From Escherichia phage vB_EcoP-101114UKE3, in sequence record NC_070982.1: a stretch of DNA of 64,000 nt, one strand, 5' to 3'. The notes under the pieces were generated by a model. That model ran no database searches. It was not told where the DNA came from and saw only the letters and a program-made list of their open reading frames with translations. This document shows positions 2,119 through 57,844 of the stretch, in pieces. The stretch's first letter is position 1. Each line of letters begins with the position of its first letter. A program made the translations under genes and the position numbers.

Positions 2119-3660
2119 ATGTCGTTAGATAAAGAAATCTATGAAGCTCTAACTGGAGACAAGTTGAGTATAGAGGAAAAGAAAGCTTTGCTCAATATGT
2201 TAAAAGAAAGGGACCAGTGGAGAAAATATAACAAGATGTTGGCTTTTAAAGCTTACGACTTTCAGAAGAAATTCTATGCAGCAGGGTTGAAGCATCGCTT
2301 TCGATTCCTGTGCGCAGCTAACCGTGTTGGTAAATCTTACAGCGAGGCATACGAGTTTGCTTGTCATGTCACAGGTCGCTATCCAACTTGGTGGACAGGT
2401 TACAGATTTAATCGACCTATATTGGCTTGGGCAGTAGGGATTACAGGGGACTCTACAAGAAAGGTATTGCAAAAGGAGTTGTTTGGAACACCTATCGGAA
2501 AGGATATGAATCTAATAGGAACAGGTGTTATTCCTCGTGATGCTATCGTATTGGACACGATAGAACGAGATGGGAACAAATTACAGATTGTACAAATTAA
2601 GCATCAAAACGCGAGAGGCGAGTTTGACGGTTTAAGTACATTAGAGTTCCGTTCTACCCAACAGGGTGAACATACATTGATGGGTGCTACAGTTGATTAT
2701 ATTTGGCTGGACGAAGAAGATCCATATGAATCTATGGCAATCTTCTCTCAGTGCGTAACACGTACACTTACAACTAAAGGTTTAGTTACTATTACAGCTA
2801 CACCAGAGAACGGTTTAACAGAGCTGGTGGATAAGTTTATGAAAGGTGAAGGAGATGAGAACACAGGTTCTCTGTATTTCCAGAATGCTTCTTGGTGGGA
2901 TGCTCATGTAGATTTAGGTGGACATATCACTGACCAAGATATTAAAGACATGACTGAAGGTATTCCAACATGGCAGTTAGAGATGCGTTCAAAAGGTATG
3001 CCGTTGCTTGGTTCTGGTTTGATTTATGATGTATCAGATGACATGATTAAGTGTGATCCCTTTGAGATACCTGATACGTGGAAACGTGTTTGTGCTATTG
3101 ATATTGGTATCGATCACCCGACAGCCGCTGTTTGGACAGCATATGATGCTAACACTGATACGATTTATGTTTATGACTGCTATAAAGAAGGTGGGTTTAC
3201 TCCGGTGTACCATGCACCAGCTATTAATGGTCGTGGTCAGTGGATTCCAGTTATTCTTCCTCACGATGCCGATAATATTGAGAAGGGAAGTGGTTCGTCT
3301 GTTGCTCAATTCTATAAGAATGCAGGGGTTAATGTACAGAGTGAGACCTTCTACAACAAGATTGGAATGGATGGTAAGAAGAACTTCTTTGTAGAGCCGG
3401 GAATTACTGATATTCGTGAACGTATGATGTCAGGTCGTTTTAAAATCTTTAACATTGCTTCGTGTGCTAAACTCTTTGAAGAGAAAGCTCGCTATCACCG
3501 TAAGGTTGGCAAGATTGTTAAGGAACATGATGACTTGATGGATGCTATGCGATATTCAGCTTGTTCTGTAACACATCGTGGACGTAGTAAGCATGATGCT
3601 AGTTATGGTAGTTCATCGCTTTATCAAGACAATATTAACAGATGGAATCAGACCTACTAA
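2119..3660 (+). CDS. Terminase large subunit
   Basis: ATG at 2119 with GGAGG RBS (the ORF-track start at 2107 is TTG); Walker A-like RVGKS and Walker B-like IWLDEED; typical size and position. Confidence 0.8.
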   Translation: MSLDKEIYEALTGDKLSIEEKKALLNMLKERDQWRKYNKMLAFKAYDFQKKFYAAGLKHRFRFLCAANRVGKSYSEAYEFACHVTGRYPTWWTGYRFNRPILAWAVGITGDSTRKVLQKELFGTPIGKDMNLIGTGVIPRDAIVLDTIERDGNKLQIVQIKHQNARGEFDGLSTLEFRSTQQGEHTLMGATVDYIWLDEEDPYESMAIFSQCVTRTLTTKGLVTITATPENGLTELVDKFMKGEGDENTGSLYFQNASWWDAHVDLGGHITDQDIKDMTEGIPTWQLEMRSKGMPLLGSGLIYDVSDDMIKCDPFEIPDTWKRVCAIDIGIDHPTAAVWTAYDANTDTIYVYDCYKEGGFTPVYHAPAINGRGQWIPVILPHDADNIEKGSGSSVAQFYKNAGVNVQSETFYNKIGMDGKKNFFVEPGITDIRERMMSGRFKIFNIASCAKLFEEKARYHRKVGKIVKEHDDLMDAMRYSACSVTHRGRSKHDASYGSSSLYQDNINRWNQTY

Positions 3661-28900: not shown

Positions 28901-30387
28901 GAGAAGTTAACATGTTCAACAAGGCTAACAAGAATTCTCAATACGAAGCAGCAGCTAAACACTTGCAAGCACGTCAAGAACGTCTTGAGACGCTCCGTAA
29001 CAGAGCTAAAGCTCGCAGTGATGCTAAGGCAGCCATGGAGGCTGAGAAGCAGTCCTTGGAGGCTATAGCGGCTCAGAAATCAGAGATAGAGAAGATGTTC
29101 AAAGAATTGCCTGAAAGTGTCAGAGAGGCTCAGGAAGGGCGTACTTTGAAACAGCTTGCTGCTCACCATGATAAGAACTCTCCAGTACCACCAGAGCGTT
29201 TCCGTAGTATCATTGAACGTATTCACAACGCTGAGAGTGATTACCTCGATCGCAAACGTCGTTTGACCGAAGCAGAGGAAGATGCTCGTGAAGCTAAGTG
29301 GAATAGGATGTATGAACAGGCTGAGGAAATGAACCGTAAGTTTGATATCGATGCTAGAGTGAAGAGAGATAAGGCTCTGAAGGAAGCTCAAGAACGAGAG
29401 AATGACTTAATGGCAGTTCAACGTCAGCGTGACGACATTCATAAGCGTTTGGTCAATACTCTGGAAGAGAAGGGAGTTTCTAGAGAAGATGCTGAAGCAT
29501 ATGCTGGGTCTTATATGGATAATCGGTATGCTTTGTTAGAGAAACCAATGACTCCAGTGGAACATCAGAATGCTCGTGCTCGTATCGAATCTGACGTAGA
29601 GAAGTTTGTTAAGAAATACGAAACAGCTACTCCAATCGAAAGAGAGATTGCTAAAGCAACTGGTGATGCAGATGGGAAACCTTCTGACTTAGATGCAGAA
29701 ACATTAAAAGCTATCGAAGATGCTCGTAAAGTTGATTCCGATTTTAAGAAACTCTTAGATGAAGAGAAGGAAATGGAGAAGATTCGTTCAGCTCTACCTG
29801 AAGATGAAAGATCTCAGGCGAACTCTGATATTCTGGAAAGTATTAAGAAACAGGAAGATGATTTTGCTAGCAAAGCAGAGAAAGCTTTTATTGAAGGGAA
29901 GGACTTGCAGGAGTTAGCGAGTGTTGCAGAAGTTCTAGATAGGGTTCATGGTGCAGACAAGGCTGGTAACAACCGTCGATTTGTACGTGCTCTACAGACT
30001 GCTGCCGAGAACAAGAAACGTTATGGGGATAATCCAGTGGCTTGGTTTAGTGCTGATGATTACTCTGCTATTGCGAAACTTGGTGCTGCTTCGGCAGGTG
30101 GTAACAAATCTCGAGCACTTGAGAAAATCTTTGGTTCTACAGCAGAACAAGCTAAAGGGAAACTTTTAGGGCGGGATGATGTAGCTAAGATTAGACGTGT
30201 GATTGAAGCGAATCCCAATGTTAAGATTCCTTCTTACAAGACAACTACTCGACAAGAGTACATGCAGTTCTTGGAGAAGTATAATGACGAGGGAGAGTTG
30301 AAAGTCAAACGTGGTTCTCTGTCTGACAAGTTGGAGAGAGGTAAGCGTCAAGCTAAACTCCGTGTTAGAGTTCGAGCTAAGGAGTAA
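25942..30387 (+). CDS. Giant coiled-coil virion protein, internal or ejection protein or tape-measure-like (1481 aa)
   Basis: A/E/K/R-rich helical repeats; last gene of the plus-strand module; RBS AAGGAGA. Confidence 0.55.
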   Translation: MANLKSWEEASKAPAYLNASPEQQAQMREQYKAAGGTIPETQPQEQPQQEERGAIGEFAQGVSNALQSGGANIAASAAKGLGGLVEIGENLTGSETSYGKRIQENSKQLLEERLSKIEDGFGKTAGQYAGVAADIGLTVANPAVAAAVIAARETGRAYADQTPKEDEDKSVLDAALVGGANYAAQKILPGMTGTASTTLGRVGQSVASNAVAGAKGGAIVGAAEAQNKYGDDTTLANVLEGAIEEGALGAAYGGAIGGVHGLISRPSPQVFDRTPEHVKTDIAAEDEAIRKAANADELREAYAKAENANAASALNLLDENGFRITDAVAMDSPAVQRILNTDQSRAEKAATVQKDSSNVPGLNPLASPKKTQGKAFADNEYNQKQAVAMKDAMADYTKDNTKALTDVLDNLDRELVALRASGDFTGSAIDIKNRTQADRDFIDAYKTFYSEANRFKARDGEDLNNFIDKATQLQKLSENVSPEMKKAIGGLKKLKGMPEGFNPIQDAFTLNNTAKFMSNQDRGWTSLTDDGFREAPAPVLVKNPLGAAKYVLNRFTSDRARAQREKQQSANSEAIRSLARADLEVQRARTQAEEARAKMEEEPTTEDIKFRTQNDAPSEPVREEPSATTVTEEIPSSPAPTETPLTARDLVAQRRALQQAELRRQEAEAAQAQESATPEPEPQQEALTARELVAQRRAVAEAKKRQEAEEAERAKEAPEEAVEEPKEKPEPLPARAPKAPEKAPEPVKPSLGVERLASMSTAARQATKDRADRFARSLYSAAAKAKATAENFLSYKGDPKELMRRIRQEDQANNTQRHEEMARNQLASQQGIASAKSQHVRASFADWVKERGLPSDIATKALRAEEKGLGGNVTSLDSLKRRAERLYQKQRDDEFDRLYREALEENKAFDKRDAPKLVDQKKELQDEIGALLDAEPLRPAQKDAMRRIMEDFVESKFKSSEKAGRVEALEVGQMKDVWDGFINTYNREVNMFNKANKNSQYEAAAKHLQARQERLETLRNRAKARSDAKAAMEAEKQSLEAIAAQKSEIEKMFKELPESVREAQEGRTLKQLAAHHDKNSPVPPERFRSIIERIHNAESDYLDRKRRLTEAEEDAREAKWNRMYEQAEEMNRKFDIDARVKRDKALKEAQERENDLMAVQRQRDDIHKRLVNTLEEKGVSREDAEAYAGSYMDNRYALLEKPMTPVEHQNARARIESDVEKFVKKYETATPIEREIAKATGDADGKPSDLDAETLKAIEDARKVDSDFKKLLDEEKEMEKIRSALPEDERSQANSDILESIKKQEDDFASKAEKAFIEGKDLQELASVAEVLDRVHGADKAGNNRRFVRALQTAAENKKRYGDNPVAWFSADDYSAIAKLGAASAGGNKSRALEKIFGSTAEQAKGKLLGRDDVAKIRRVIEANPNVKIPSYKTTTRQEYMQFLEKYNDEGELKVKRGSLSDKLERGKRQAKLRVRVRAKE

Positions 30388-46840: not shown

Positions 46841-47374
46841 TTATACACCCTTAGATGCAACTACACCATTACTGCCGTTGTATCGACCCTTCACTGCATA
46901 AGAGTCATCACCAGCGTGAGAGTGTTCGAACATAACCATTTGACCAACACGCATCCCAGCACGAACTCGTAAGCTATGATTATGGGTAACGTTATGAAAT
47001 TCAAAGGTTAGTTTACTGCTGTTAAACCCTGCATCAGCCCAACCAGCATGGAGGTGGTTTAAACCACAACGAGCCATTGAGGAGCGAAGTACAAACAGGC
47101 TTGAGATGTTATCTGGAAGGTTAAACTCTTCCATTGAGTGCGCTAAGAAGAATTGCCCCGGAGTGATAACAATACCATCTTCAGGGATTTTTACTTCTTT
47201 CCACTTGAGGTTTTCTTTAGCATCAATGTCAACAATTCCGTCAGCCTGTTCTTCAACAAGGATAGTATCACCAATACGGATATCCACGCTAGCAGCGTTA
47301 ACATATTTATGCTCCGCATCTAAAAAGCCATTATCAATAACGCTGTGTAATTCTTGAGAACCTAAAAGACTCAT
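46841..47374 (-). CDS. dcd: dCTP deaminase / dUTPase-family enzyme (177 aa)
   Basis: SSMARCGL and GWADAGFNSSKLTFEF blocks typical of the dCTP deaminase family. Confidence 0.7.
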   Translation of the reverse strand: MSLLGSQELHSVIDNGFLDAEHKYVNAASVDIRIGDTILVEEQADGIVDIDAKENLKWKEVKIPEDGIVITPGQFFLAHSMEEFNLPDNISSLFVLRSSMARCGLNHLHAGWADAGFNSSKLTFEFHNVTHNHSLRVRAGMRVGQMVMFEHSHAGDDSYAVKGRYNGSNGVVASKGV

Positions 47375-48819
47375 GAGTTTCTGTTTCCTTGTACAGATGA
47401 TGCCAAATTATTAATCATGTTACGAGCTGTTTCACGAGATAGTGTAACACCTGCTAAGTTGTTATGAAGCTCACCAGATAGCTCACGAGCAGCAGCTCGA
47501 AGTTCTGTACCAAGTGTAGTATCGGAGTGAGCCAAACCATTACGACGACTATAAGGTCGAGGAGCTTCGTTAGCGTCATTAGCCAATGATGCAAAACCAA
47601 TATGAGCAGCTTCACGAGACGCTATAGTTGACACTCGATCTTCCGTAGGGGTTGGCAAATCACCAACTTCTACACGTTCTATATCACCAGCACGTAGACC
47701 CTGAACGACTGAGCTTACTGTTTCCCATGAACGACGAGAACGCTGTAAATCACCCATTGACGGAGAAGAAGCAGGTCGAACAGTTACTCCACCTGTATCA
47801 TGAGTGACATGCCATGTACGAGTATCCATTCCAGAAGAGCGTGCACTACCAAAACTGCCAGTGAAAGTGTCACGAGGTGCCATTGTAGGAGGAACTGCGA
47901 ATCTTTCCTGTTGCCAAGAATCGCGTCTGTTAGTTCCCGGAGTCCAAGGCTGCGTGATTGCTTCAGCACCTATAGTGGTTAATCCGCTAGACCATTCTGT
48001 CTGTAGGTTAACTTCCTCGTCCAGATAACTACGACCCCTTTCCTGAGGAATGTTTAATATAGTTTCCATCATCTTCAGGGTATAATGACGACGCTGATTC
48101 TGATATAAATTTACACCAGCCATAGGTCCAACTAAATCACTAATCAGGTGAACTTCTGGCTCACCGAAAGCTCCCATTGCAAGGTGCATATATTCGGTAG
48201 AACTGCTATAAACTGCAACAGTTGCTTCAGGCCACTTCTTGTGAACATACTTCATTTCACGACCAGATACCACAGGAATGTCACGAGTGTATGACATTGC
48301 AAACAAACCTTCGTTTGACACATACATGTCATCAAGAGACATGAACCCCTGACAGATCATAGGAAAGCGACGGCTTAAAGTATCCATATCCAAAGGTAGA
48401 TTAATCATCATCTGGATTTTAACTTGATCAATCTCAATTTCCAGAATCTCTTGGAAAGTGAAAAGTGCTTCAGCGTAAGTTGTCCCACTAACAGGCTGAA
48501 CTAGGCGAGATGTAGTTTGAAGCCCTTTACTCTCTGTCCAAGACAAGAAGTTGTCAAGGAACAGTGCAGCATTCATCACGTTAGCAGGGTTGTTTTCCTG
48601 ACGGGTGTTCCAACGAAACCCTCCTTGGACTAGGAAGATATCCACATCATTCGGAGTTCGGTTCTGGAAGAACGTATCACGGATAGCACCACCTGCAATA
48701 ACAGGGTAGATACCATCAGGAACTACGTTGTCTCTGATCAGATTGCGAATCAGATCAAGCCCTACGCTGAGGGCTTCTCCTTCTTGAAGGTTTAATTCAG
48801 ACAATGGAATCTTAATCAT
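47371..48819 (-). CDS. Nucleotidyltransferase-fold protein with long S/T/R/G-rich C-terminal region (about 482 aa)
   Basis: GG-x13-DVD pattern (VIAGGAIRDTFFQNRTPNDVDIF) fits Pol-beta-type NTase; ATG at 48819 sits 2 nt after the exonuclease stop. Confidence 0.5.
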   Translation of the reverse strand: MIKIPLSELNLQEGEALSVGLDLIRNLIRDNVVPDGIYPVIAGGAIRDTFFQNRTPNDVDIFLVQGGFRWNTRQENNPANVMNAALFLDNFLSWTESKGLQTTSRLVQPVSGTTYAEALFTFQEILEIEIDQVKIQMMINLPLDMDTLSRRFPMICQGFMSLDDMYVSNEGLFAMSYTRDIPVVSGREMKYVHKKWPEATVAVYSSSTEYMHLAMGAFGEPEVHLISDLVGPMAGVNLYQNQRRHYTLKMMETILNIPQERGRSYLDEEVNLQTEWSSGLTTIGAEAITQPWTPGTNRRDSWQQERFAVPPTMAPRDTFTGSFGSARSSGMDTRTWHVTHDTGGVTVRPASSPSMGDLQRSRRSWETVSSVVQGLRAGDIERVEVGDLPTPTEDRVSTIASREAAHIGFASLANDANEAPRPYSRRNGLAHSDTTLGTELRAAARELSGELHNNLAGVTLSRETARNMINNLASSVQGNRNS

Positions 48820-48821
48820 TT

Positions 48822-49370
48822 CTACATTTTCCAATTTAGAGATGGGGGATTCTTATAATCAAATCCAGCCATTTGGCAAAGACACATGTAAACCTTAACT
48901 GTCAAGTTAACGTCTTGCTCACAATACGTGAACATGTCTTCAGTGAATGCATCCCATGCTTCTTCCTGTTCACCATAATCACCCTTCAGCTCTCCCAGAA
49001 ATTCGCCCCATTGCTTGAGGCCATGACCGCGAGGGCCATGTCTAGGGTCGCCTTTGGGGTATTCTGGACTATCACCAATACGGTCAGGCTTGAGATATCT
49101 ACTCAGGCACAAAGTATCGAAGACGTTAAAGCGAAAAGGTATCACATGAGAATAAAACTTAAACAAAGCAGGAAGGTCAAAATCAATAATATTGTGACCT
49201 ATTACTACATCAGCTTCTTTCAGTTTGTGTAGTGCTTCTTCAATTTGGTGAGGGCGATACCCCCACCGCTCTCCAGATAATACATCAAATATCCAGATAC
49301 ACCAGACATTCTGAATACCATCATAGAGATTATCACCCTCGATATCAAACGCATACAGTTTCTTTACCAC
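48822..49370 (-). CDS. DnaQ-like 3'-5' exonuclease, stand-alone proofreading domain (182 aa); GTG start
   Basis: Exo I FDIE, Exo [13 protein letters not shown], Exo III YCEQD; GTG at 49370 preceded by GGAGG. Confidence 0.65.
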
Positions 49371-51154
49371 GGACGTGCCTCCCCTTCCTGTGCAAGTAAG
49401 GAAGCTGCATCCTCTCCATTGGTAACGGTAAAAGGATGCTCTTCATCAACTTCATGATCTTCTCGTTCTACAAGACGACCTGTTTCGTTAATGTATTTGG
49501 TATAGCAAACCCCTGTCTGTCCATAGTTACGCTCTTTGAGCAGTCGTATGATTGACAAGTTTTTACCTAACCCATCCGCTTGTTTGTTACGTTCAAAACC
49601 AATAATACACTGACACCAGCGCATCAATGAACGTGAACCAGTAAACTGTACTTCTTTAACCTGACCACCTTCTTCGTGAGGTGCACCACCTGCCGGAGCG
49701 TTCAAGTGAGATAATACAAAAGCAGTGAAGTCTAATTCCTTACACATACCAGCAAGCTCTGAAGCAATCTTGCTGATTTCTGTGTTTACCTCAGATGGGG
49801 TTAAGTGAGATACCAATGCAGTGATGTTATCAAGAATGATAAATTTACACTGATTCTCAACTACCCAAAAGCGAATACACTGCTTAATGTCTTCCCACTC
49901 GTTCTGCCCAAAGTTGTCATACAAGAAAAACTTATCAGCGTATCGAAGTGCTTCATCTCGTAGCTGGCTTTCTTCGTACTCAACATCTGGTCGGTGGAAT
50001 GGAATAGATGCAGATTTACCTGCAATGTTCTTAACAGACATGCCTACCTTCTCTTCCAAGAAGAAGCCACCACCATTAAAACCATGCTCAAGGCAAAGCC
50101 ATGCTACTAGTTCGTGTGCGATTAAGGTTTTACCTGAACCAACACCACCGCCGATTGCAACCATCTCTCCCCAACGAATACCAAAGGTCATGTCGTTAAG
50201 AGTTTTCCACGGATAAGGAATACCCCATTCCGCTTTCTTCAGAGCATCTTCGAGGCAATCAAAAACTGTAACAGCTCCAGCAGGAGATTCCCGCTTAGCT
50301 GAATATTTCAGATTGTTGAAAAGCTCTTGACCTCTCCCTGCAAGTAACATGTCGTTTGCATCTTTGATTTCCTTTTCTTGTCCGTTATAAGTGAACGTAC
50401 CTTTTGGAATCCTTGCAAACTTAACATGCGGGTACAGAGAACGACCCTTAGTTAAAGCAATCTCACCTGCATCATCATTGTCCATGCAGAGTACAATCTC
50501 CTCGAAACCATTAATAAAATCACGGTTTCTTGATAATACAGAAGAGATTGAACCTGCACCGAACGGAAGAGAGACGCAAGCAGGTTTGATGTTAGTTGCG
50601 TTTGTAAACGCGGTAAGTACGTGGAACCCAGACATACAAGAGAGAGGATCTTCAAAGATGAAGAGTTTCTTGTTGTATACGTCACCACGTTGTGCTTGAG
50701 CCATACCAAACAAGTCGGCTTCTTTCACATTACCTACATAATAGAACTTCTTGCTGTCTAGAAGTTTTACTTCATATCCAACAATGTTCCCATCACGTTC
50801 ACGAGGGAAGAAGTAGCTGTCAGGAGTTTGACCATCTGTTTGGCTTAAACCGATACGGCATCCATAACGTTCAGATACAGCTTTAGGAATTAAGCGACGA
50901 GTCAACTCTCCCTGAGGAAGCTCTAAGCAATCGTCTAAGACTTCTCGGAGTTCTTCAGGGGACAGCTCTTTCTTTTCATTAGGAGTGGGCGTCGTTCCTT
51001 TCTCGAAGATTTCATACGCACCACATCTGTTACATGAACCCCACTCCTCACCGGACTCTTCATTTCGGAAGAGAATCATGTGATTGCGGGTCTTATCACG
51101 ACCATGAGAGATACACTCTTTACAGCCTGTGTCTCCCAAAATGATCTTTGACAT
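49364..51154 (-). CDS. Primase-helicase (596 aa)
   Basis: N-terminal C-x2-C...C-x2-C zinc ribbon, central primase-like region, C-terminal Walker [10 protein letters not shown]; RBS AAGGAGG. Confidence 0.8.
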
Positions 51155-51189
51155 GCTCTATCCTCCTTGGAATTCCTTGAGCAATCTTC

Positions 51190-51396
51190 TTAGTAAAACG
51201 ATCGTATTTCTTCCCACACATCATCTTGCAAGTTTCTAAAACCCTGCAAGGTTTGCTTTGTTCTGTGAATAAATTCTTCAGAGTGCTTATCAGGTGTGAG
51301 CATACTGACAAACTTTTCATAGCGATTAATCTTCCACCGCATCTTCAAGTAGTCAGATTCCAGCTTTCTTAACTTCTGCCTGTCAGTTACTGTCAT
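51190..51396 (-). CDS. Small hypothetical protein (68 aa)
   Basis: ORF-track frame 51190..51492 trimmed to the ATG at 51396. Confidence 0.35.
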   Translation of the reverse strand: MTVTDRQKLRKLESDYLKMRWKINRYEKFVSMLTPDKHSEEFIHRTKQTLQGFRNLQDDVWEEIRSFY

Positions 51397-51814
51397 CCTT
51401 CTCACCTGCCAGATATGCTGTCCAGTCACCAGATTCAACCAGAACATCTTGTTCTTCGTCGATGTGATAAATCCACGCTTCCACAGTTTCACCGCTGTCC
51501 AATAATACTGGAATCAGTGTACGCTTGTAAAAGGTGTATGGGTTATCATTACCACGATGACCTTCCAGACCGTCATACGGACCTTCCAGACCAGCTTGGG
51601 TTGTTTCAAAGACTTCTACACGAACAGGCTTACCATTGCTGTCATGCTCCAAAGATACACTTGGGAAGTATGCTGTGCAATACTGATACAGGTTACAGTT
51701 GTTTACTGTCCACCCTTCACCAATAGACACACCACCTGCACGAGCATTGATAGCGTGGTTGTGTTGACCTTTACGAAGAGAACCATACGTTGCAACTAAT
51801 ACTTTATCAGACAT
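51383..51814 (-). CDS. AIG2 / gamma-glutamyl cyclotransferase-like protein (143 aa)
   Basis: N-terminal YGSL motif (VATYGSLRKG) with downstream acidic residues; RBS AAAAGG. Confidence 0.55.
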   Translation of the reverse strand: MSDKVLVATYGSLRKGQHNHAINARAGGVSIGEGWTVNNCNLYQYCTAYFPSVSLEHDSNGKPVRVEVFETTQAGLEGPYDGLEGHRGNDNPYTFYKRTLIPVLLDSGETVEAWIYHIDEEQDVLVESGDWTAYLAGEKDDSN

Positions 51815-51818
51815 TACA

Positions 51819-52016
51819 TTACCTTTTGTTTAAAATTTCTTTTGTACAAGAAGTCCCGTTACACACGAGAACTGTTTGAGTTATAGAATCGACAACTGTT
51901 ACATGGCTGCCGCATTGAGTTATGATTTGACCTCTCCCTGAATCTTTAGAGATGCATTCATCAGCGGCGATCGCTGACACACTGAATAAGGAGAGGAAAA
52001 ATAGAATCTTTTTCAT
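51819..52016 (-). CDS. Small secreted cysteine-rich protein (65 aa)
   Basis: Signal peptide MKKILFFLSLFSVSAIA followed by about 48 residues with 4 Cys. Confidence 0.45.
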   Translation of the reverse strand: MKKILFFLSLFSVSAIAADECISKDSGRGQIITQCGSHVTVVDSITQTVLVCNGTSCTKEILNKR

Positions 52017-52022
52017 GGCTGC

Positions 52023-52439
52023 TTACCAATCATGTTGGAAACCAGAATATCCAGAGAAGATGATTGATCGGATTGGCTTTTCAGGGAATCCTTCAAAACA
52101 TCCCTTAATGGCTTTCTTGGTTTCATCAGAAATTGACTCTTTTTCACCAAACCAATATTCTTCAAAAATATCAGAGAAGATATAAGTTCGGTATCTTTCC
52201 AAGTCATAAAAACCTTCCACTGCACTTGTAACAGCTCTACTAATTACACTTGAAGCTACAGGAAATAAGTCACCGTGTTCCAGAAACAAGCACCAACGAT
52301 CAAAGAGAGGAATCTCTTCATCTTTCAGAAGACTTTCTAACTCTTCCTTTGCCTCTTTCTTGTGCTTCTCAAAGAGGTTTTTGGAATACTCTACATCTAA
52401 GATACGACTTTTAAACATATCCAGTTTATTATTAACCAT
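52023..52439 (-). CDS. Hypothetical protein (138 aa)
   Basis: RBS AGAGG. Confidence 0.45.
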   Translation of the reverse strand: MVNNKLDMFKSRILDVEYSKNLFEKHKKEAKEELESLLKDEEIPLFDRWCLFLEHGDLFPVASSVISRAVTSAVEGFYDLERYRTYIFSDIFEEYWFGEKESISDETKKAIKGCFEGFPEKPIRSIIFSGYSGFQHDW

Positions 52440-52496
52440 TTTACAACCTCTAGTTAAATTCGAACTAGCCTCCTCTTTCGAAGAGGCTAAAGCAAA

Positions 52497-52682
52497 TTAT
52501 TCTACTTCGAAGTGTTTGATCACACCAGTCAGTACATCAGATTGGAATGTACCCACTAGCTCTGTACCTCGGAAAAAGTTAACACTTGTTCCAAGTGATT
52601 CAAAGCGATCTGCTTGAATGTCCAGAGATTGAATATTTCCTTCTGCTGACATTGTACGAAACATGATTGTGTATTTATTCAC
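52497..52682 (-). CDS. Small hypothetical protein (61 aa), GTG start
   Basis: GTG at 52682 with AAGGGAG RBS, overlapping the upstream stop. Confidence 0.35.
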   Translation of the reverse strand: MNKYTIMFRTMSAEGNIQSLDIQADRFESLGTSVNFFRGTELVGTFQSDVLTGVIKHFEVE

Positions 52683-52921
52683 AGACTCGTTACTCCCTTA
52701 TCTGCTTGTGCAATTGCGATGATACGCTCAGCACATTCCATTGAATACTTATCACCTCGTTTGAGGAAGGTGATGATTGCAGAGAACTGATTACCAATCA
52801 TTCTCTTATTTGTGATACCAAACTCTTCACAGAGTTGGTTGATAGCTTTACGAGAGCCTACAATCAGAGGCTCTTTTTCTTCGGTCATTCCACGGCTGAT
52901 CAAATCTTCGATAGACAACAT
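52679..52921 (-). CDS. Small hypothetical protein (80 aa)
   Basis: ORF in the operon. Confidence 0.4.
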   Translation of the reverse strand: MLSIEDLISRGMTEEKEPLIVGSRKAINQLCEEFGITNKRMIGNQFSAIITFLKRGDKYSMECAERIIAIAQADKGVTSL

Positions 52922-52947
52922 TACAAATTCCTTTTTGTTTAATTTAA

Positions 52948-54183
52948 TTACAGAGTTACTGCTACTTCGCTACCTTCAACATTGACAGACTCTAACTTGC
53001 GAGGGTTATGAATCTGGACTGGATTGACCGGAACGTTCCAACCACTGCGGTAGAAGTTACGACCATCACAGAACAAAATGACATTGGCAGACATTGCATT
53101 CGGTTGAAGGTTGTTGTGGACGTGACGGATATCTGCAATCCAGTAACCACGAGACAAAGTGTAACCAGTAGGTGCATTACGAATAGTTTGAGTATTCATC
53201 TGACCTTCTAGCTGCATTTCTTCAGGAACTACATCTACCGAATCAACCGGCTGTGCTACTTGTCCTTCCAGTGCAAAGTTTTCATCATCAGCACTTTCAA
53301 TATCATCCACTAACTCACCGTCTCCATCTTCAATCGGAGTCTGGTAAACCACTTTATACTGAGGAGTATAGAGAGGGTTCTGAGCTTTAACAAACTCAAG
53401 AATGTTATGACGGTAGGTATCCAGAGTTGTACCAGTCAGGCCCGGTGCTGTATTAACTTCCAGTACCCACGCTTCTTGACCTTTGGTGATAATATCAACT
53501 GCACCGAAATCCAGACCCATTGATTCAACAGCTTTCACTGCATTGATCAGAGAGGCGTCATTCGGAGCATCTGTGAAGGAGCTTGAGTAAACCCAGCCAG
53601 TGTGGTGATTACGAATATCTTCACGATAGTTAGGGTCTTCGCGATAACCATTGCGACGAATCTTCTTCTGAACATAGGTGATTACACCTTTGAACACATG
53701 GACACGCCACTCACGACGTGGGCCTTGAATGCCTTTAGTGTACAGTTCAGCTCGACCAAGACCATCACCCGGTTCTACAACAACAATGCCCGAACCAGAG
53801 TGACCAGTCAGCTCATGGCGCTCATACACAATATTACCAGTGTTTGACCACTCTTGAGCAGTCTCTTGAACATCTGTGTATTCCACAGTTTTAACACCTG
53901 CTTGGTCCATCACGCTGAAAGCACGACGTTTGTTCGCTGCCATATGTAAGGCTGCGGTACGGTTAAGGACGGTTGCAGAACCAAAGAATGATTCAGGATA
54001 GCGACGGTTCCCGTAGTTAACAACCACATCACCTTCACGAGAACGCCAGCGGCTATTCTCTGAAAGAAGACCCATCACGTTAGCATTGATGCGTTCATCA
54101 CGGATAGTATCACTGATAGCAGATACTAGAGCGTTAACAGAATCAGACGGGCCATACGGAAGAACACGGATACGAGTAGTCAT
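52948..54183 (-). CDS. ATP-grasp ligase (411 aa)
   Basis: Glycine-rich GHSGSGIVVV loop and C-terminal VLEVNTAPGLTG motif typical of ATP-grasp enzymes. Confidence 0.7.
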   Translation of the reverse strand: MTTRIRVLPYGPSDSVNALVSAISDTIRDERINANVMGLLSENSRWRSREGDVVVNYGNRRYPESFFGSATVLNRTAALHMAANKRRAFSVMDQAGVKTVEYTDVQETAQEWSNTGNIVYERHELTGHSGSGIVVVEPGDGLGRAELYTKGIQGPRREWRVHVFKGVITYVQKKIRRNGYREDPNYREDIRNHHTGWVYSSSFTDAPNDASLINAVKAVESMGLDFGAVDIITKGQEAWVLEVNTAPGLTGTTLDTYRHNILEFVKAQNPLYTPQYKVVYQTPIEDGDGELVDDIESADDENFALEGQVAQPVDSVDVVPEEMQLEGQMNTQTIRNAPTGYTLSRGYWIADIRHVHNNLQPNAMSANVILFCDGRNFYRSGWNVPVNPVQIHNPRKLESVNVEGSEVAVTL

Positions 54184-54185
54184 TT

Positions 54186-54416
54186 TTAGATACCTTTTAG
54201 TTTAAGAATTTCGTTACGACAGGATTGAATTTTAGCTTCGATTGCCCAATACTCAGCGAACATTTCGTCTTCTTGGGCATCGCTTGGAGAGTCGATTAAG
54301 TTAAAAGCAAACGGATACAGCTTTCGCTGCTCCGTTACCAGTTGTTGAAGTCGGAGTTGTTGATACTCCAGCATTGTCAGGTGAGGCTTAGCTCCCTTGC
54401 TTGACATGAGGCTCAA
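54186..54416 (-). CDS. Small hypothetical protein (about 76 aa), possible TTG start
   Basis: TTG at 54416 with AAGGGG RBS; the first ATG is at 54407. Confidence 0.35.
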   Translation of the reverse strand: MSLMSSKGAKPHLTMLEYQQLRLQQLVTEQRKLYPFAFNLIDSPSDAQEDEMFAEYWAIEAKIQSCRNEILKLKGI

Positions 54417-54621
54417 CTTTAATCCCCTTCATTTTAACATAGTCAGCCAACACGTTATTGATAACGGTTGGAAAAGGGATTTCTACTGGAGAGTCAACCA
54501 GCTTCCCAATACCTTCTTGCATCCACTTCTGGATTGCTCGGAGGTTATCACATCCTGTGCTTGTCATCGGAATACGGCGGGTAGTTACCACGTTATCCAA
54601 CATCAGTTTACGAACTTCCAT
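54388..54621 (-). CDS. Small hypothetical protein (77 aa)
   Basis: RBS AAGAGG. Confidence 0.4.
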   Translation of the reverse strand: MEVRKLMLDNVVTTRRIPMTSTGCDNLRAIQKWMQEGIGKLVDSPVEIPFPTVINNVLADYVKMKGIKVEPHVKQGS

Positions 54622-54632
54622 AACTATACCTC

Positions 54633-56666
54633 TTAGTGTTTACCTTTACAGTAATCTGAATTACAGATCACCCTGTTTTCTTTGTTCAGTGAGCAAGTTT
54701 CTGCATCACGCCACGGAATTTGTTTATAACAGACTGCACAAAACCCAATTGAAGTCCAGAGGGCTTTTGTAAACTCAGCTGTTCGTTGTCCATCGTAACT
54801 GACAACTGTTTTTCGGAGAGAGGTTGACTTTTCTGGAAATGTCTCCGCTTTCTCAGCGGGTACCTCCTTTGGGGCATTCTTTGGACCATAAACAGAGATG
54901 GCATAAGTATCACCACCACGTTTTTCCAAATACGAATTAGGAACATCTGCAAGTGTGATGTCCCCTGAACGTTTTGCTGAGCTGACCATTACAATCATAC
55001 GGCTAAGCATACGTTCATCAACACGAACAGCTACTTCAGGACGACGTGGGTTGGTTGTGTCTACTGCTTTAGTCCAAATATAACCTTCAGATAGAGTAAC
55101 ATTCTTTACTTTATCTTTGATTTCTTTGGAGCAGATATAACAAACGTCTTCACCACGAAGTTTACTCATTTCGTTGTCAAACTCGAAATCAGTCTTGACT
55201 TCACCACAGATAGCACATACACCCAAAGGCACATCTTCTTCCTCTTCAGAGGTTTTAGATAACGCTTCGAAGCATTCTGGATGCCAGTATGCCTGATAAG
55301 CAAACACAGCCTTACGAGCATCTTTCCAGTCAATGTGCTTATCACAACCACCACAGTCACCATGAGAGTGAGATTCCCAGAACTTACGAGTGACTTCTAC
55401 ACCATTCTTAGTGATGAAGGAGTCCTCTGCATCAAAAGGGATATCATCATCAAAATCAGCAGTAGTGCTTTGAGGCTCCTTATCTGTAGCATCAACAAAC
55501 AGCCCTGAAGTTAGTACGAGGCGAATCATACTGTCCACTTCGGAGATACAAGCAATCGTCCCGCGATATACTACCTTTGGGTTTTCAAGAGCCTTAAGAT
55601 ATTCATCTTTGGCTACGTTGTGAACATCCCCTTCGACATACTCTTGAGCTTTATCATCGTAGATGTAACCAACCATCTTACCACGATCTGTGTTGTTATA
55701 AGCATGGAACTCGTGAGGAATAATATCCACACGACCATCACGACGATAAGGAAGACCGCGATCGGCAGCCAGTTTGTTCTGGTCTTCAATCGCTTTACGA
55801 CGACGAATGTCTCCGCTTGTCACGCCGGGCTTGTCGTCTTTGTTTCCGTAAATGTCGCTTGTGCTGCTGCTTGATTTGTTTGTCTGTTGGTTCTGATAAA
55901 GAGAGGAGTTCGAGTAATAGCCGCCCCAGCGACTCGTTACCGTAAAAACCGGAAGCGTGTGCTCCACCTCTTGAACCAGAGTCATACGACTGTTAGACAC
56001 ATCAAAGATATACTCAGTTCCCACTTTACATTCGAAGTGGTCATTGATATGGTTCTTATGGGACTTAGAACGCTCTAAAATCCACATAAGCATAGCTTCT
56101 TCAGAAGCTCCAAACCAATCCAAACCACAGCGGGCTAGGTGGAAAGGACGCTCATCATTACGGATAATGTGAAGTGTGTTGTCTTTAGCATCATGCCAAA
56201 TCAAAGTGAATGCACCATCCAGTTTTTGGATAGTCTCTGCTGCTCCAATGGTGTTAATTGAGTGGCAGATGTTTTCACTATCAACTTCGAAACGCTTACT
56301 GTCAGGAAGGAGATCTTGATCTAACAGGGTTCCATTATGAACCAGAGTAATATCCCCGTGAGTAAATGGGTGAGCATTTCGAGCATTGACAGCCCCACGA
56401 GTGGCATGTCGGCTGTGACCAACAATCCACGAAGGAGGAACTACGTAGTTCGTAAGCCCTTTGGTAATATTTGTATATTCTGTCTGGAGCATAAAAGCAT
56501 AAGAAGGAAGAGCTTCTTTATAAGAGAAGACTTGCTTTTCACCTTTACGCTGACCAAACACACCAGTTGAGTGCTGTCCACGGAAAACACCAGCATACAG
56601 AAGTTGGTTGAAAATGTCCAAATCTGCTGAGGTCATGTTGCCGCCAGCTAATACGATACCACAAAT
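54633..56666 (-). CDS. Ntn-hydrolase / class-II glutamine amidotransferase-like protein fused to a CxxC-rich C-terminal region (about 677 aa); predicted AUU start
   Basis: The frame upstream of the first ATG reads stop-K-I-CGIVLAGGNM..., giving the GAT-II N-terminal Cys; ATT at 56664-56666 has AGGTGG 8 nt upstream; RHATRG and NAHPF blocks; at least five C-x2-C pairs in the C-terminal third. Confidence 0.65.
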   Translation of the reverse strand: MCGIVLAGGNMTSADLDIFNQLLYAGVFRGQHSTGVFGQRKGEKQVFSYKEALPSYAFMLQTEYTNITKGLTNYVVPPSWIVGHSRHATRGAVNARNAHPFTHGDITLVHNGTLLDQDLLPDSKRFEVDSENICHSINTIGAAETIQKLDGAFTLIWHDAKDNTLHIIRNDERPFHLARCGLDWFGASEEAMLMWILERSKSHKNHINDHFECKVGTEYIFDVSNSRMTLVQEVEHTLPVFTVTSRWGGYYSNSSLYQNQQTNKSSSSTSDIYGNKDDKPGVTSGDIRRRKAIEDQNKLAADRGLPYRRDGRVDIIPHEFHAYNNTDRGKMVGYIYDDKAQEYVEGDVHNVAKDEYLKALENPKVVYRGTIACISEVDSMIRLVLTSGLFVDATDKEPQSTTADFDDDIPFDAEDSFITKNGVEVTRKFWESHSHGDCGGCDKHIDWKDARKAVFAYQAYWHPECFEALSKTSEEEEDVPLGVCAICGEVKTDFEFDNEMSKLRGEDVCYICSKEIKDKVKNVTLSEGYIWTKAVDTTNPRRPEVAVRVDERMLSRMIVMVSSAKRSGDITLADVPNSYLEKRGGDTYAISVYGPKNAPKEVPAEKAETFPEKSTSLRKTVVSYDGQRTAEFTKALWTSIGFCAVCYKQIPWRDAETCSLNKENRVICNSDYCKGKH

Positions 56667-56743: not shown

Positions 56744-57844
56744 TTACAGCAGTCGTTCTAATTGCATTTCCAGATGGTCTGGAATATAACCAGTGACGTT
56801 ATCATCACTGCTACCTGATTCACGCATCAATGCAAACATGTGACGAATTTCACGAACCGTTGCGATTCGAGTGCTTTCAATCTGAGGGGTGTAGTAGGTC
56901 ATGATCTCTTCGTAGACACTGTTGGCATTACCGCGCACATATCCCAAGAAACCATAGAAGTCATTCATATCACGTAAGTTGATAAGGACTTCACCATCAG
57001 GGCCAGTCTGTTGCACACGAACACGACCAACCAAAGTTACAGATTGCTCACGACAGAAGAGAATATCACGAGCAAGACGATACCCTTCAGTGAGATCACT
57101 GTCTCTTGGAGTATAGTCTAGGGGTAGATGTTGAATCATAGGAGCGAAGCGCAGCTCATTCAACTTCTCAACATAAGCTTCATTGTCTAAATCTGCATAT
57201 TCAACAGCCAGTTTCTTGAGAACCAAGAAGCGGTTGACCAGATTCAGAAGTTGGCTCTTTTTCCACTTCGGCTCTGAGATACGGAACTCAACAGAACCAA
57301 ATTGAGATAGAGGCAAAAGATTAAGGGAGGTGTATTTATCCCAGCTATTAACAAGAGAGTGGAAGAAAGCTTCCCCGTCTCGGTTGAACGCTGACGAAGC
57401 ATTCATAACTTGTGCTTGAACGACAGCAAAAGCTGGACAGAAGTTGCTACGATAGCGATGGTATCCAGAACATTTGAACATCATCTTTTCATAGAACGTC
57501 CATCCAAGAATAACTTTCTTAAGGATATTACTATCAGCGTCACGCATATCCATATGAACGTGAGTGGAGCAGCGCCAAGTTCCCTCGGCTCCAGAATCCT
57601 GTACTGCTTCACTCAGATTGTTAATAGCACGAAGTAATTCTTCACCGTTGTAAGGTCGTGCACATACTAATTCACAACCATCACGAAGAGAGCCATCTTC
57701 AGTACAAACCCACATATCAGCGTCAATGTCAGTTGTACCTTCGACTTCTAACTCAATACCAACACCACACTGAAAAGCAATACTTGGATGCGGTTCAGAT
57801 AAGCGAGGGTTACGGTATCCAAAAACTTGTGCTACGGTTGTCAT
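56744..57844 (-). CDS. Amidoligase-like (carboxylate-amine ligase, glutamine synthetase-like fold) protein (366 aa)
   Basis: GVGIELEVEG near the N-terminus and a downstream STHVHMD motif; genomic context with GAT-II-like and AIG2-like genes. Confidence 0.45.
   Translation of the reverse strand: MTTVAQVFGYRNPRLSEPHPSIAFQCGVGIELEVEGTTDIDADMWVCTEDGSLRDGCELVCARPYNGEELLRAINNLSEAVQDSGAEGTWRCSTHVHMDMRDADSNILKKVILGWTFYEKMMFKCSGYHRYRSNFCPAFAVVQAQVMNASSAFNRDGEAFFHSLVNSWDKYTSLNLLPLSQFGSVEFRISEPKWKKSQLLNLVNRFLVLKKLAVEYADLDNEAYVEKLNELRFAPMIQHLPLDYTPRDSDLTEGYRLARDILFCREQSVTLVGRVRVQQTGPDGEVLINLRDMNDFYGFLGYVRGNANSVYEEIMTYYTPQIESTRIATVREIRHMFALMRESGSSDDNVTGYIPDHLEMQLERLL

Follow-up and report, generated by a model that had tools for sequence, protein, structure and literature searches.

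ORF65, a small four-cysteine protein with a predicted export signal from an accessory-gene slot of Escherichia phage vB_EcoP-101114UKE3

Of the characterised small disulfide-containing proteins that virulent coliphages export, the two compared here are superinfection-exclusion factors. T4 Spackle has a 75-residue mature part that forms a helical bundle with one disulfide and inhibits the gp5 tail lysozyme (PMC7677548), and T5 Llp, a lipoprotein, jams FhuA on its periplasmic side; many small phage proteins without a known role have been suggested to exclude superinfection likewise (PMC9586334). The bacterial lysozyme inhibitors Ivy, MliC, PliC and PliG, as well as PliI, are mainly beta-sheet proteins that reach into the active site with a hairpin loop (PMC7677548). 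Here, we describe the computational characterization of ORF65, a gene for a small exported protein with four cysteines found in DNA of Escherichia phage vB_EcoP-101114UKE3 (record NC_070982.1; the whole stretch of 64,000 nucleotides is called the window). ORF65 is a complete coding sequence of 65 codons at 51819..52016 on the minus strand, exactly where a first-pass annotation, made from the sequence alone, had placed it. In kind it is ordinary, being an accessory protein of a virulent phage, small and exported; its family is uncharacterised, with a minimal beta fold predicted confidently and a horizontally mobile distribution. That ORF65 encodes a real exported accessory protein, independent of the ligase genes around it, is very probable. 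We give about even weight to the fuller explanation that ORF65 stands alone as a true accessory gene, of "moron" type, in a family restricted to phages and has a periplasmic exclusion or envelope role, and a specific exclusion or envelope-protection role, drawn by analogy, is put forward tentatively.

Like Spackle, ORF65 belongs to a virulent coliphage, and the further shared features are predicted for ORF65: expression ahead of the late genes, removal of an N-terminal export signal and action in the periplasm as a small mature protein with disulfides. Spackle is alpha-helical with one disulfide and targets gp5, whereas an all-beta fold with two disulfides is predicted for ORF65, and neither HMMER nor the AlphaFold2 (AF2) model placed ORF65 in the Spackle family or revealed similarity in sequence or fold. 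Llp and the Cor proteins of T1 and phi80 resemble ORF65 as very small, periplasm-facing products of accessory genes of virulent enterobacterial phages with an intramolecular disulfide (PMC9586334). They differ in having a lipobox with an acylated cysteine at +1, in being encoded beside the receptor-binding-protein gene and in jamming FhuA, whereas ORF65 has a signal peptidase I (SPase I) site without a lipobox and lies away from the tail-fibre genes, with gp79/gp78-like genes on one side and GGACT on the other, in the replication/middle region of a phage that uses O-antigen and probably lipopolysaccharide (LPS) core rather than a TonB-dependent transporter (PMC11990801). Exhaustive HMMER searching gave ORF65-like clusters only, three in all, and no homology to Llp or Cor. 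The lysozyme inhibitors are exported, beta-rich and often disulfide-bonded, as is predicted for ORF65, but they have two to three times its size and belong to cells rather than phages; action through a hairpin loop is a feature of the inhibitors, and no sequence or fold match between ORF65 and their families was detected. By analogy ORF65 may work like Spackle or Llp, but it belongs to neither family.

Coding evidence, export signal and predicted fold

The ORF65 product, MKKILFFLSLFSVSAIAADECISKDSGRGQIITQCGSHVTVVDSITQTVLVCNGTSCTKEILNKR, is read from an ATG start to a TAA stop. The window copy differs from that of phage ECBP2 by 9 synonymous changes and by 4 non-synonymous ones that are conservative (two of F to L within the hydrophobic h-region of the signal peptide, one of I to V and one of V to I), giving a dN/dS of 0.12. 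The corresponding value against phage MLP3 is 0.07, and the ECBP2 and MLP3 copies differ from each other by 10 synonymous and 0 non-synonymous changes. The five other frames over ORF65 contain 3-5 stops each, with dN/dS values of at least 0.33. Because the synonymous excess is confined to its own frame, ORF65 is a selected coding sequence, and it is a real gene under purifying selection. It carries the label "hypothetical" in the GenBank records MZ234015 and OQ689734 (as 101114BS3_057 in MZ234015 and as g080c in phage 4E8) and is omitted from the annotation of ECBP2 (RefSeq record NC_018859 was examined), IME267, MLP3 and HC-25922, where intact but unannotated copies lie at 52817-53011 of NC_070983 (IME267), 53706-53900 of NC_018859 (ECBP2) and 29258-29452 of OK148440 (MLP3). 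The gene deserves annotation in the records of ECBP2, IME267, MLP3, NC-B and HC-25922.

The signal peptide and its cleavage site were judged by rule, from features of the n-, h- and c-regions. Residues 1-17 (MKKILFFLSLFSVSAIA; 51966..52016, minus strand) are the predicted signal peptide, and a cut by SPase I after AIA would release the remainder, ADECISKDSGRGQIITQCGSHVTVVDSITQTVLVCNGTSCTKEILNKR. The n-region, M-K-K, has a charge of +2, and the h-region (I4-I16) comprises 13 uncharged, mainly hydrophobic residues with a maximum 9-residue Kyte-Doolittle mean of 2.52; alanine occupies positions -3 and -1, and acidic residues follow directly (A-I-A before the cut, A-D-E after it). No lipobox of the form [LVI][ASTVI][GAS]C with cysteine at +1 is present, the first cysteine being mature position 4, after A-D-E, and the match to Pfam LPAM_1 falls below threshold (E 0.55). 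The N-terminus thus conforms to the SPase I rules, which ask for a positively charged n-region, a hydrophobic h-region of 7-15 residues and, at -3 and -1, residues that are small and neutral, and which exclude a lipobox. Judged from these features, it has everything that marks a Sec/SPase I signal peptide, so the rule-based analysis bears out the signal peptide that the first-pass annotation had noted, as well as its description of a small, cysteine-rich exported protein. Signal peptides ending in A/V-x-A are kept in 8/8 aligned family members despite their divergence, and the homologue in phage PBES 02 carries a sig_peptide feature assigned by its depositors. The precursor would thus be exported by Sec and cut by SPase I after A17.

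The mature part (51822..51965, minus strand) comprises 48 residues (about 5.1 kDa, isoelectric point 6.8), with the four expected cysteines at mature positions 4, 18, 35 and 40. An AF2 model of this part, built on three sequences, has a mean predicted local distance difference test score (pLDDT) of 87.4 and a predicted template modelling score (pTM) of 0.62, and is all beta, with no helix; it forms a meander of five consecutive antiparallel strands at mature residues 4-10, 13-18, 21-26, 31-36 and 39-44. Disulfides are suggested between C21 and C35 and between C52 and C57 of the precursor, that is, C4-C18 closing hairpin 1-2 and C35-C40 across hairpin 4-5, a pairing that was read from the strand register and not computed. 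The spacing pattern of the family supports two hairpin-closing disulfides, since the distance between the first two cysteines is fixed at 13 residues and that between the last two is variable. Two consecutive disulfides would also follow the order expected of a chain oxidised while emerging into the periplasm, where the mature protein would be oxidised, presumably by DsbA, and fold into the five-strand meander with its two hairpin disulfides.

A Foldseek search of the model against BFVD returned nothing at E of 0.001 or below; the top matches, all at E above 0.001, are uncharacterised small phage proteins, including K9L5L5 of phage phiTE, and no specific fold relative was found. The sole match in a profile search of Protein Data Bank (PDB) sequences was spurious, arising from the signal peptide (E 0.09).

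Family, distribution and independence from the ligase genes

ORF65 has no match in Pfam, NCBIfam or PADLOC. A word-indexed search of 5.8e9 proteins returned its own cluster only, and an exhaustive HMMER scan of 1.84e9 representative proteins returned three clusters only, namely the query, P0002 (49% identity) and P0003 (41%). Searching with tblastn revealed an unannotated homologue in Enterobacter phage Mulvp2 (35% identity), and two metagenomic Mulvp2-like contigs also carry one. With the Mulvp2 protein as query, more remote small proteins were reached in the Klebsiella siphoviruses RCIP0019, Snook and VLCpiD7b, in Klebsiella phage KaOmega and in the Certrevirus myoviruses CR3, CR8, PBES 02, phiTE and CB7. 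A hidden Markov model (HMM) built from the mature parts alone, so that signal peptides contributed nothing to the score, matched the Mulvp2-type proteins at E 1e-6, RCIP0019 at 4e-4 and Snook at 0.014; the Certrevirus homologues (PBES 02, CR3, CR8, phiTE) were marginal (E 0.3-0.4) and are therefore ranked as possible, not established, members of the family.

In an alignment of 8 sequences, the initiator methionine, the four cysteines and two glycines are invariant, and homologues at 35-49% identity retain the signal peptide together with all four cysteines. Cysteine spacing in the family is 13 / 14-16 / 4-9, and the motif ECI..G.GQ.ITQCG is retained by homologues. ORF65 itself has each of the features by which we define the family: a signal peptide, the pattern C-x13-C-x14-16-C-x4-9-C, the core C[IT]..(.)G.G...[IT].C and a length of 65-70 residues. 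Nearly full-length matches were obtained to phrog_20764 for 4/5 family members (best E 0.0027) and to phrog_12866 for 3/5 (best E 3e-6), the window's ORF65 itself matching PHROG weakly (E 0.032); because both groups are annotated "unknown function", membership gives no mechanism. Scanning IMG/VR with ORF65 returned ECBP2 alone. Homologues number 0 in 185,579 species-representative genomes (GTDB), 0 in 5,426 complete E. coli genomes and 0 in 72,556 plasmids (PLSDB). Judged by these searches, the family appears to be phage-only and to come from enterobacterial phages.

No neighbouring gene is conserved between the lineages that carry ORF65-like genes. In Mulvp2 and RCIP0019 the gene sits amid small early or accessory genes. 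The small plus-strand island of Mulvp2, antisense to the flanking Mulvp2_41 and Mulvp2_42, is wholly unannotated in the Mulvp2 record, and an 89-residue protein of this phage (L005 5326-5595) has a hydrophobic N-terminal segment with one putative transmembrane helix. The gene that follows the ORF65-like gene differs among the Mulvp2-like contigs, and in L013 a T5orf172/MUG113-type homing-endonuclease-like protein (2330-3229) comes after it, whereas in Mulvp2 that position is taken by the 89-residue protein.

The region 50000-54500 of the window is 100% identical to Escherichia phage vB_EcoP-101114BS3 (MZ234015) and 90-99% identical to the phiEco32-like Gordonclarkvirinae podoviruses IME267, 4E8, HC-25922, MLP3, NC-B, ECBP2 and SU7. 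Aligning the window, SU7 and ECBP2 shows ORF65 to lie with a DUF7020 gene in an accessory cassette at 51831..52451 (minus strand), an indel of about 620 bp by comparison with SU7, its borders placed to within a few nucleotides. In both the alignment and the SU7 annotation, SU7 is without the cassette, though it is about 97-98% identical over the aligned flanks. The cassette is placed between a hairpin 3' of the gp78-like gene and the GGACT ribosome-binding site, and its G+C content is 37%, below the 42% of the whole window and the 44-46% of the enzyme genes that flank it. ORF65 ends in the sense codons AAA AGG (51822..51827, minus strand), which double as a Shine-Dalgarno-like element of GGACT; this element is also present in the cassette-less SU7.

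ORF65 occurs in 9 records that represent 7 distinct phages (the window phage, HC-25922, IME267, 4E8, MLP3, NC-B and ECBP2), compared with 205 phage records for the ATP-grasp gene. Bas86, Bas87, EK010, TH43 and Bas88 share with SU7 the two-piece match at 86% coverage and are missing from the ORF65 hit list. No homologue of the ATP-grasp, amidoligase or GATase proteins is detectable in either Mulvp2 or RCIP0019, where no match is stronger than E 0.5, and the sole GGACT match in the two is a 38-residue fragment in RCIP0019 (E 0.027). Since the SU7 indel, the patchy presence and the homologues in ligase-free genomes all speak against joint acquisition with the ligase set, ORF65 is, by these genome comparisons, optional cargo independent of the amidoligase/ATP-grasp/GATase/GGACT set, and should not be counted within the amidoligase/ATP-grasp system when that system is studied. 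The first-pass annotation had placed the gene inside a ligase operon, which is true in the physical sense only; the site itself is a hypervariable accessory-gene slot.

This slot, between the gp78-like and GGACT genes (51815..52495), was compared in phiEco32-like phages (L002, L008, L009, L016, L018, L024, L025 and further relatives). It is empty in SU7 and 172-1; holds a cytoplasmic "MKHERLSKA..." protein of 69-80 residues in Paul, L008, L016 and L018, and an unknown family of 134-138 residues in L008 and L016; carries DUF7020 without ORF65 in L015-L019; and in L009-L012 contains an ORF65-like gene ahead of a tandem pair of DUF7020 genes and two more unknown genes. In L008 an ORF65-like gene stands with a 138-residue unknown, without DUF7020; a reading of this neighbour as a divergent DUF7020 was rejected (hhalign probability 0.4%). 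Because presence of the cassette is independent of flank identity, repeated gain, loss or recombination is suggested, and the site is a hotspot of accessory-gene exchange.

Two further observations concern the slot. The conserved small cytoplasmic family "MKHERLSKA.D.VW..GCVIYREH...ATDQQCAYIE" (L008 7793-8035, L016 98-316, L018 1097-1306, L024 5195-5404) often stands just upstream of DUF7020 and has no Pfam match. A strong, conserved RNA hairpin at about 52457..52498 (minus strand; -20.8 kcal/mol, z -3.7), directly 3' of the gp78-like ORF, delimits the cassette on the left and is found in identical form in SU7 and ECBP2; no T-run follows it, and it could be a terminator, an attenuator or an RNA-processing site.

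Possible roles of ORF65

A periplasmic effector, as the first-pass annotation had suggested, is still the best reading of ORF65 and a plausible one from its sequence features. In the explanation to which we give about even weight, the protein of about 5 kDa would bind a component that Enterobacterales share and that lies in, or is exposed to, the periplasm, or else part of the incoming virion, and this is the least certain step. Binding would shield the infected cell from secondary infection or from premature envelope damage; alternatively, it would prevent loss of progeny on debris. Spackle and Llp follow this functional logic. Gordonclarkvirinae use O-antigen and probably LPS core as receptors (PMC11990801). 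Because phages of the family have different receptors and the G.GQ.ITQCG core is conserved, a conserved envelope or periplasmic host target would be likelier than the masking of a specific receptor. Several points weigh against this explanation: ORF65 does not stand beside receptor-binding-protein genes, unlike Llp and Cor; the different receptors of the family phages argue against simple receptor masking; the window copy has a weak, GGTAAG-like Shine-Dalgarno sequence; just three sequences went into the AF2 model; and the cleavage site is assigned by rule only. If the role holds, ORF65 would represent an uncharacterised class of very small exported phage effectors in the enterobacterial periplasm, would inform work on superinfection exclusion and on takeover of the envelope in Gordonclarkvirinae, a little-studied group whose members are common candidates for therapy, and its 48-residue disulfide-locked scaffold could serve as a binder. 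A bolder claim, doubtful when all its parts are taken jointly, is that ORF65 founds a phage-only family of double-disulfide beta-meander mini-proteins of about 5 kDa that spread horizontally among virulent Enterobacterales phages unrelated to one another (phiEco32-like podoviruses, siphoviruses both Mulvp2-like and of Klebsiella, and possibly myoviruses of Certrevirus), and that bind, perhaps through beta-strand augmentation, a conserved and possibly essential machine of the periplasm or outer membrane, Lpt, Bam, Tol-Pal or peptidoglycan enzymes being examples. Were it true, the envelope would be taken over, or superinfection excluded, by a new mechanism, and the proteins would offer a natural peptide scaffold directed at an antibacterial target.

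Other explanations differ in how far the same observations carry them. ORF65 could act in the periplasm to inhibit a host enzyme, such as a murein hydrolase, lytic transglycosylase, protease or nuclease, and would then tune the timing of lysis or protect the infection instead of excluding other phages; by analogy with the hairpin-loop mode of the lysozyme inhibitors this is a serious alternative, albeit one that we hold to be unlikely. The predicted all-beta fold with exposed hairpin loops would suit it, as would the mainly beta structure of the known inhibitors, with a hairpin loop in the active site (PMC7677548), and the retention of G.GQ.ITQCG in phages whose hosts span five genera suggests that the host target is conserved; yet ORF65 is much smaller than the known inhibitors and no relation to their families in sequence or fold was found. 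Slightly less likely again is a functional two-gene module of ORF65 and DUF7020 (PF22885), with one partner periplasmic and the other cytoplasmic, for example an effector with a chaperone, immunity protein or regulator, or an RI/RIII-like pair on the two faces of a membrane target. The two genes were inserted together, 6 nucleotides apart, and both occur in the same 7 phages; ORF65-like and DUF7020 genes adjoin again in the divergent L009-L012 lineage in the opposite order, which suggests that adjacency was retained through rearrangement. Their adjacency is nevertheless limited to two lineages, the window and L009 types: the ORF65-like gene of L008 stands beside the 138-residue protein that is not DUF7020, no DUF7020 gene was detected next to it in the Mulvp2-type, Klebsiella or Certrevirus phages, or at any place in the genomes of Mulvp2 and RCIP0019, and L015-L019 have DUF7020 without ORF65. 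The two may simply be alternative cargo of one slot, and, as DUF7020 has no signal peptide, their products would be in different compartments.

That ORF65 is a small toxin or bacteriocin-like peptide (STb-like or microcin-like), released at lysis or acting on the host envelope and affecting neighbouring cells, we regard as improbable. STb is helical, with a mature part of 48 residues and four cysteines, and ORF65, a signal peptide followed by a four-cysteine mature peptide of about 48 residues, resembles secreted enterobacterial peptide toxins in format. ORF65 is instead predicted to be all-beta, gave no homologues among cellular or plasmid proteins in the searches above, is adjoined by no conserved immunity or export gene, and has a near-neutral to acidic isoelectric point, unlike cationic membrane-active peptides. 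More improbable still is the suggestion of the first-pass annotation that the protein is a substrate or product of modification enzymes, for instance as the ribosomal precursor of a ribosomally synthesized and post-translationally modified peptide (RiPP) of graspetide type, modified by the adjacent ATP-grasp, amidoligase and GATase proteins. The gene is co-directional with those for ATP-grasp, two amidoligases, GATase and GGACT, and its mature product is rich in Ser, Thr, Asp, Glu and Lys. However, the cassette is missing in SU7 and in more than 90% of the enzyme-carrying phage records, ORF65-like genes occur in Mulvp2 and RCIP0019, where no such enzymes were detected, the N-terminus is a Sec signal peptide rather than a leader peptide, and the conserved residues are Cys and Gly, with no pattern of acceptors and donors. 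Obligate co-occurrence of precursor and enzyme was found in neither direction, and the ligase-substrate reading was rejected. Least probable of all is a silent or non-functional frame, conserved either as such or because regulatory signals in RNA or DNA overlap it. The Shine-Dalgarno sequence is weak in the window copy, several annotation pipelines skipped the gene, and its 3' end overlaps the GGACT ribosome-binding site, but the strong synonymous excess is specific to the ORF65 frame, protein identity of 35-49% persists with synonymous sites saturated (proportion of synonymous differences, pS, 0.72-0.78), and other family members have good Shine-Dalgarno sequences (GGAG, AAGG, GAGGG) at proper spacing.

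Surrounding locus and expression

All genes of the locus are on the minus strand. In transcription order, amidoligase_2 (56744..57844) comes first, followed by a class-II GATase (54633..56636), an ATP-grasp protein (52948..54183), an 80-residue orthologue of phiEco32 gp79 (52679..52921) and a 61-residue gp78-like gene, located between the gp79 orthologue and DUF7020. The DUF7020 gene (52023..52439), directly upstream of ORF65, encodes a cytoplasmic protein of 138 residues with an orphan fold, and a literature search on DUF7020 found no papers. Directly downstream of ORF65 is the GGACT/AIG2-like gene (51383..51814), and then primase/helicase.

The gp79 protein of phiEco32 is a middle-class regulator of RNA polymerase (PMC8948821), which it binds, shutting off sigma-70 transcription and stimulating the phage sigma factor gp36. 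Because its orthologue is present in synteny, the locus probably belongs to the middle transcription class, and ORF65 is most likely read from a long minus-strand middle transcript. Scans of the cassette for sigma-70 promoters and terminators gave nothing convincing, and no match to the gp36-type promoter with one mismatch or fewer was found near it. One candidate for the gp36-type promoter tAATGTAtA, TAATGTAAT at the GGACT start codon, was rejected, as it has two mismatches and would initiate inside GGACT. Given its weak Shine-Dalgarno sequence and a start codon 6 nucleotides after the DUF7020 stop codon, translational coupling to DUF7020 is plausible; ORF65 would be transcribed along with the minus-strand middle genes and its translation probably coupled to that of DUF7020.

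Further observations concern the neighbouring genes. The gp79 orthologue is called just "hypothetical" in most records of this phage group. The GATase has a long C-terminal half with several CxxC-type clusters and a weak LIM/zinc-ribbon-like match, which is unusual among GATases. A 487-residue protein at 47371..48834 (minus strand), a nucleotidyltransferase in the annotation of relatives, has a long Ser/Thr/Arg-rich, apparently disordered C-terminal half. Its gene adjoins the dCTP deaminase gene, at whose locus the BASEL paper shows full synteny across Gordonclarkvirinae except for homing-endonuclease insertions.

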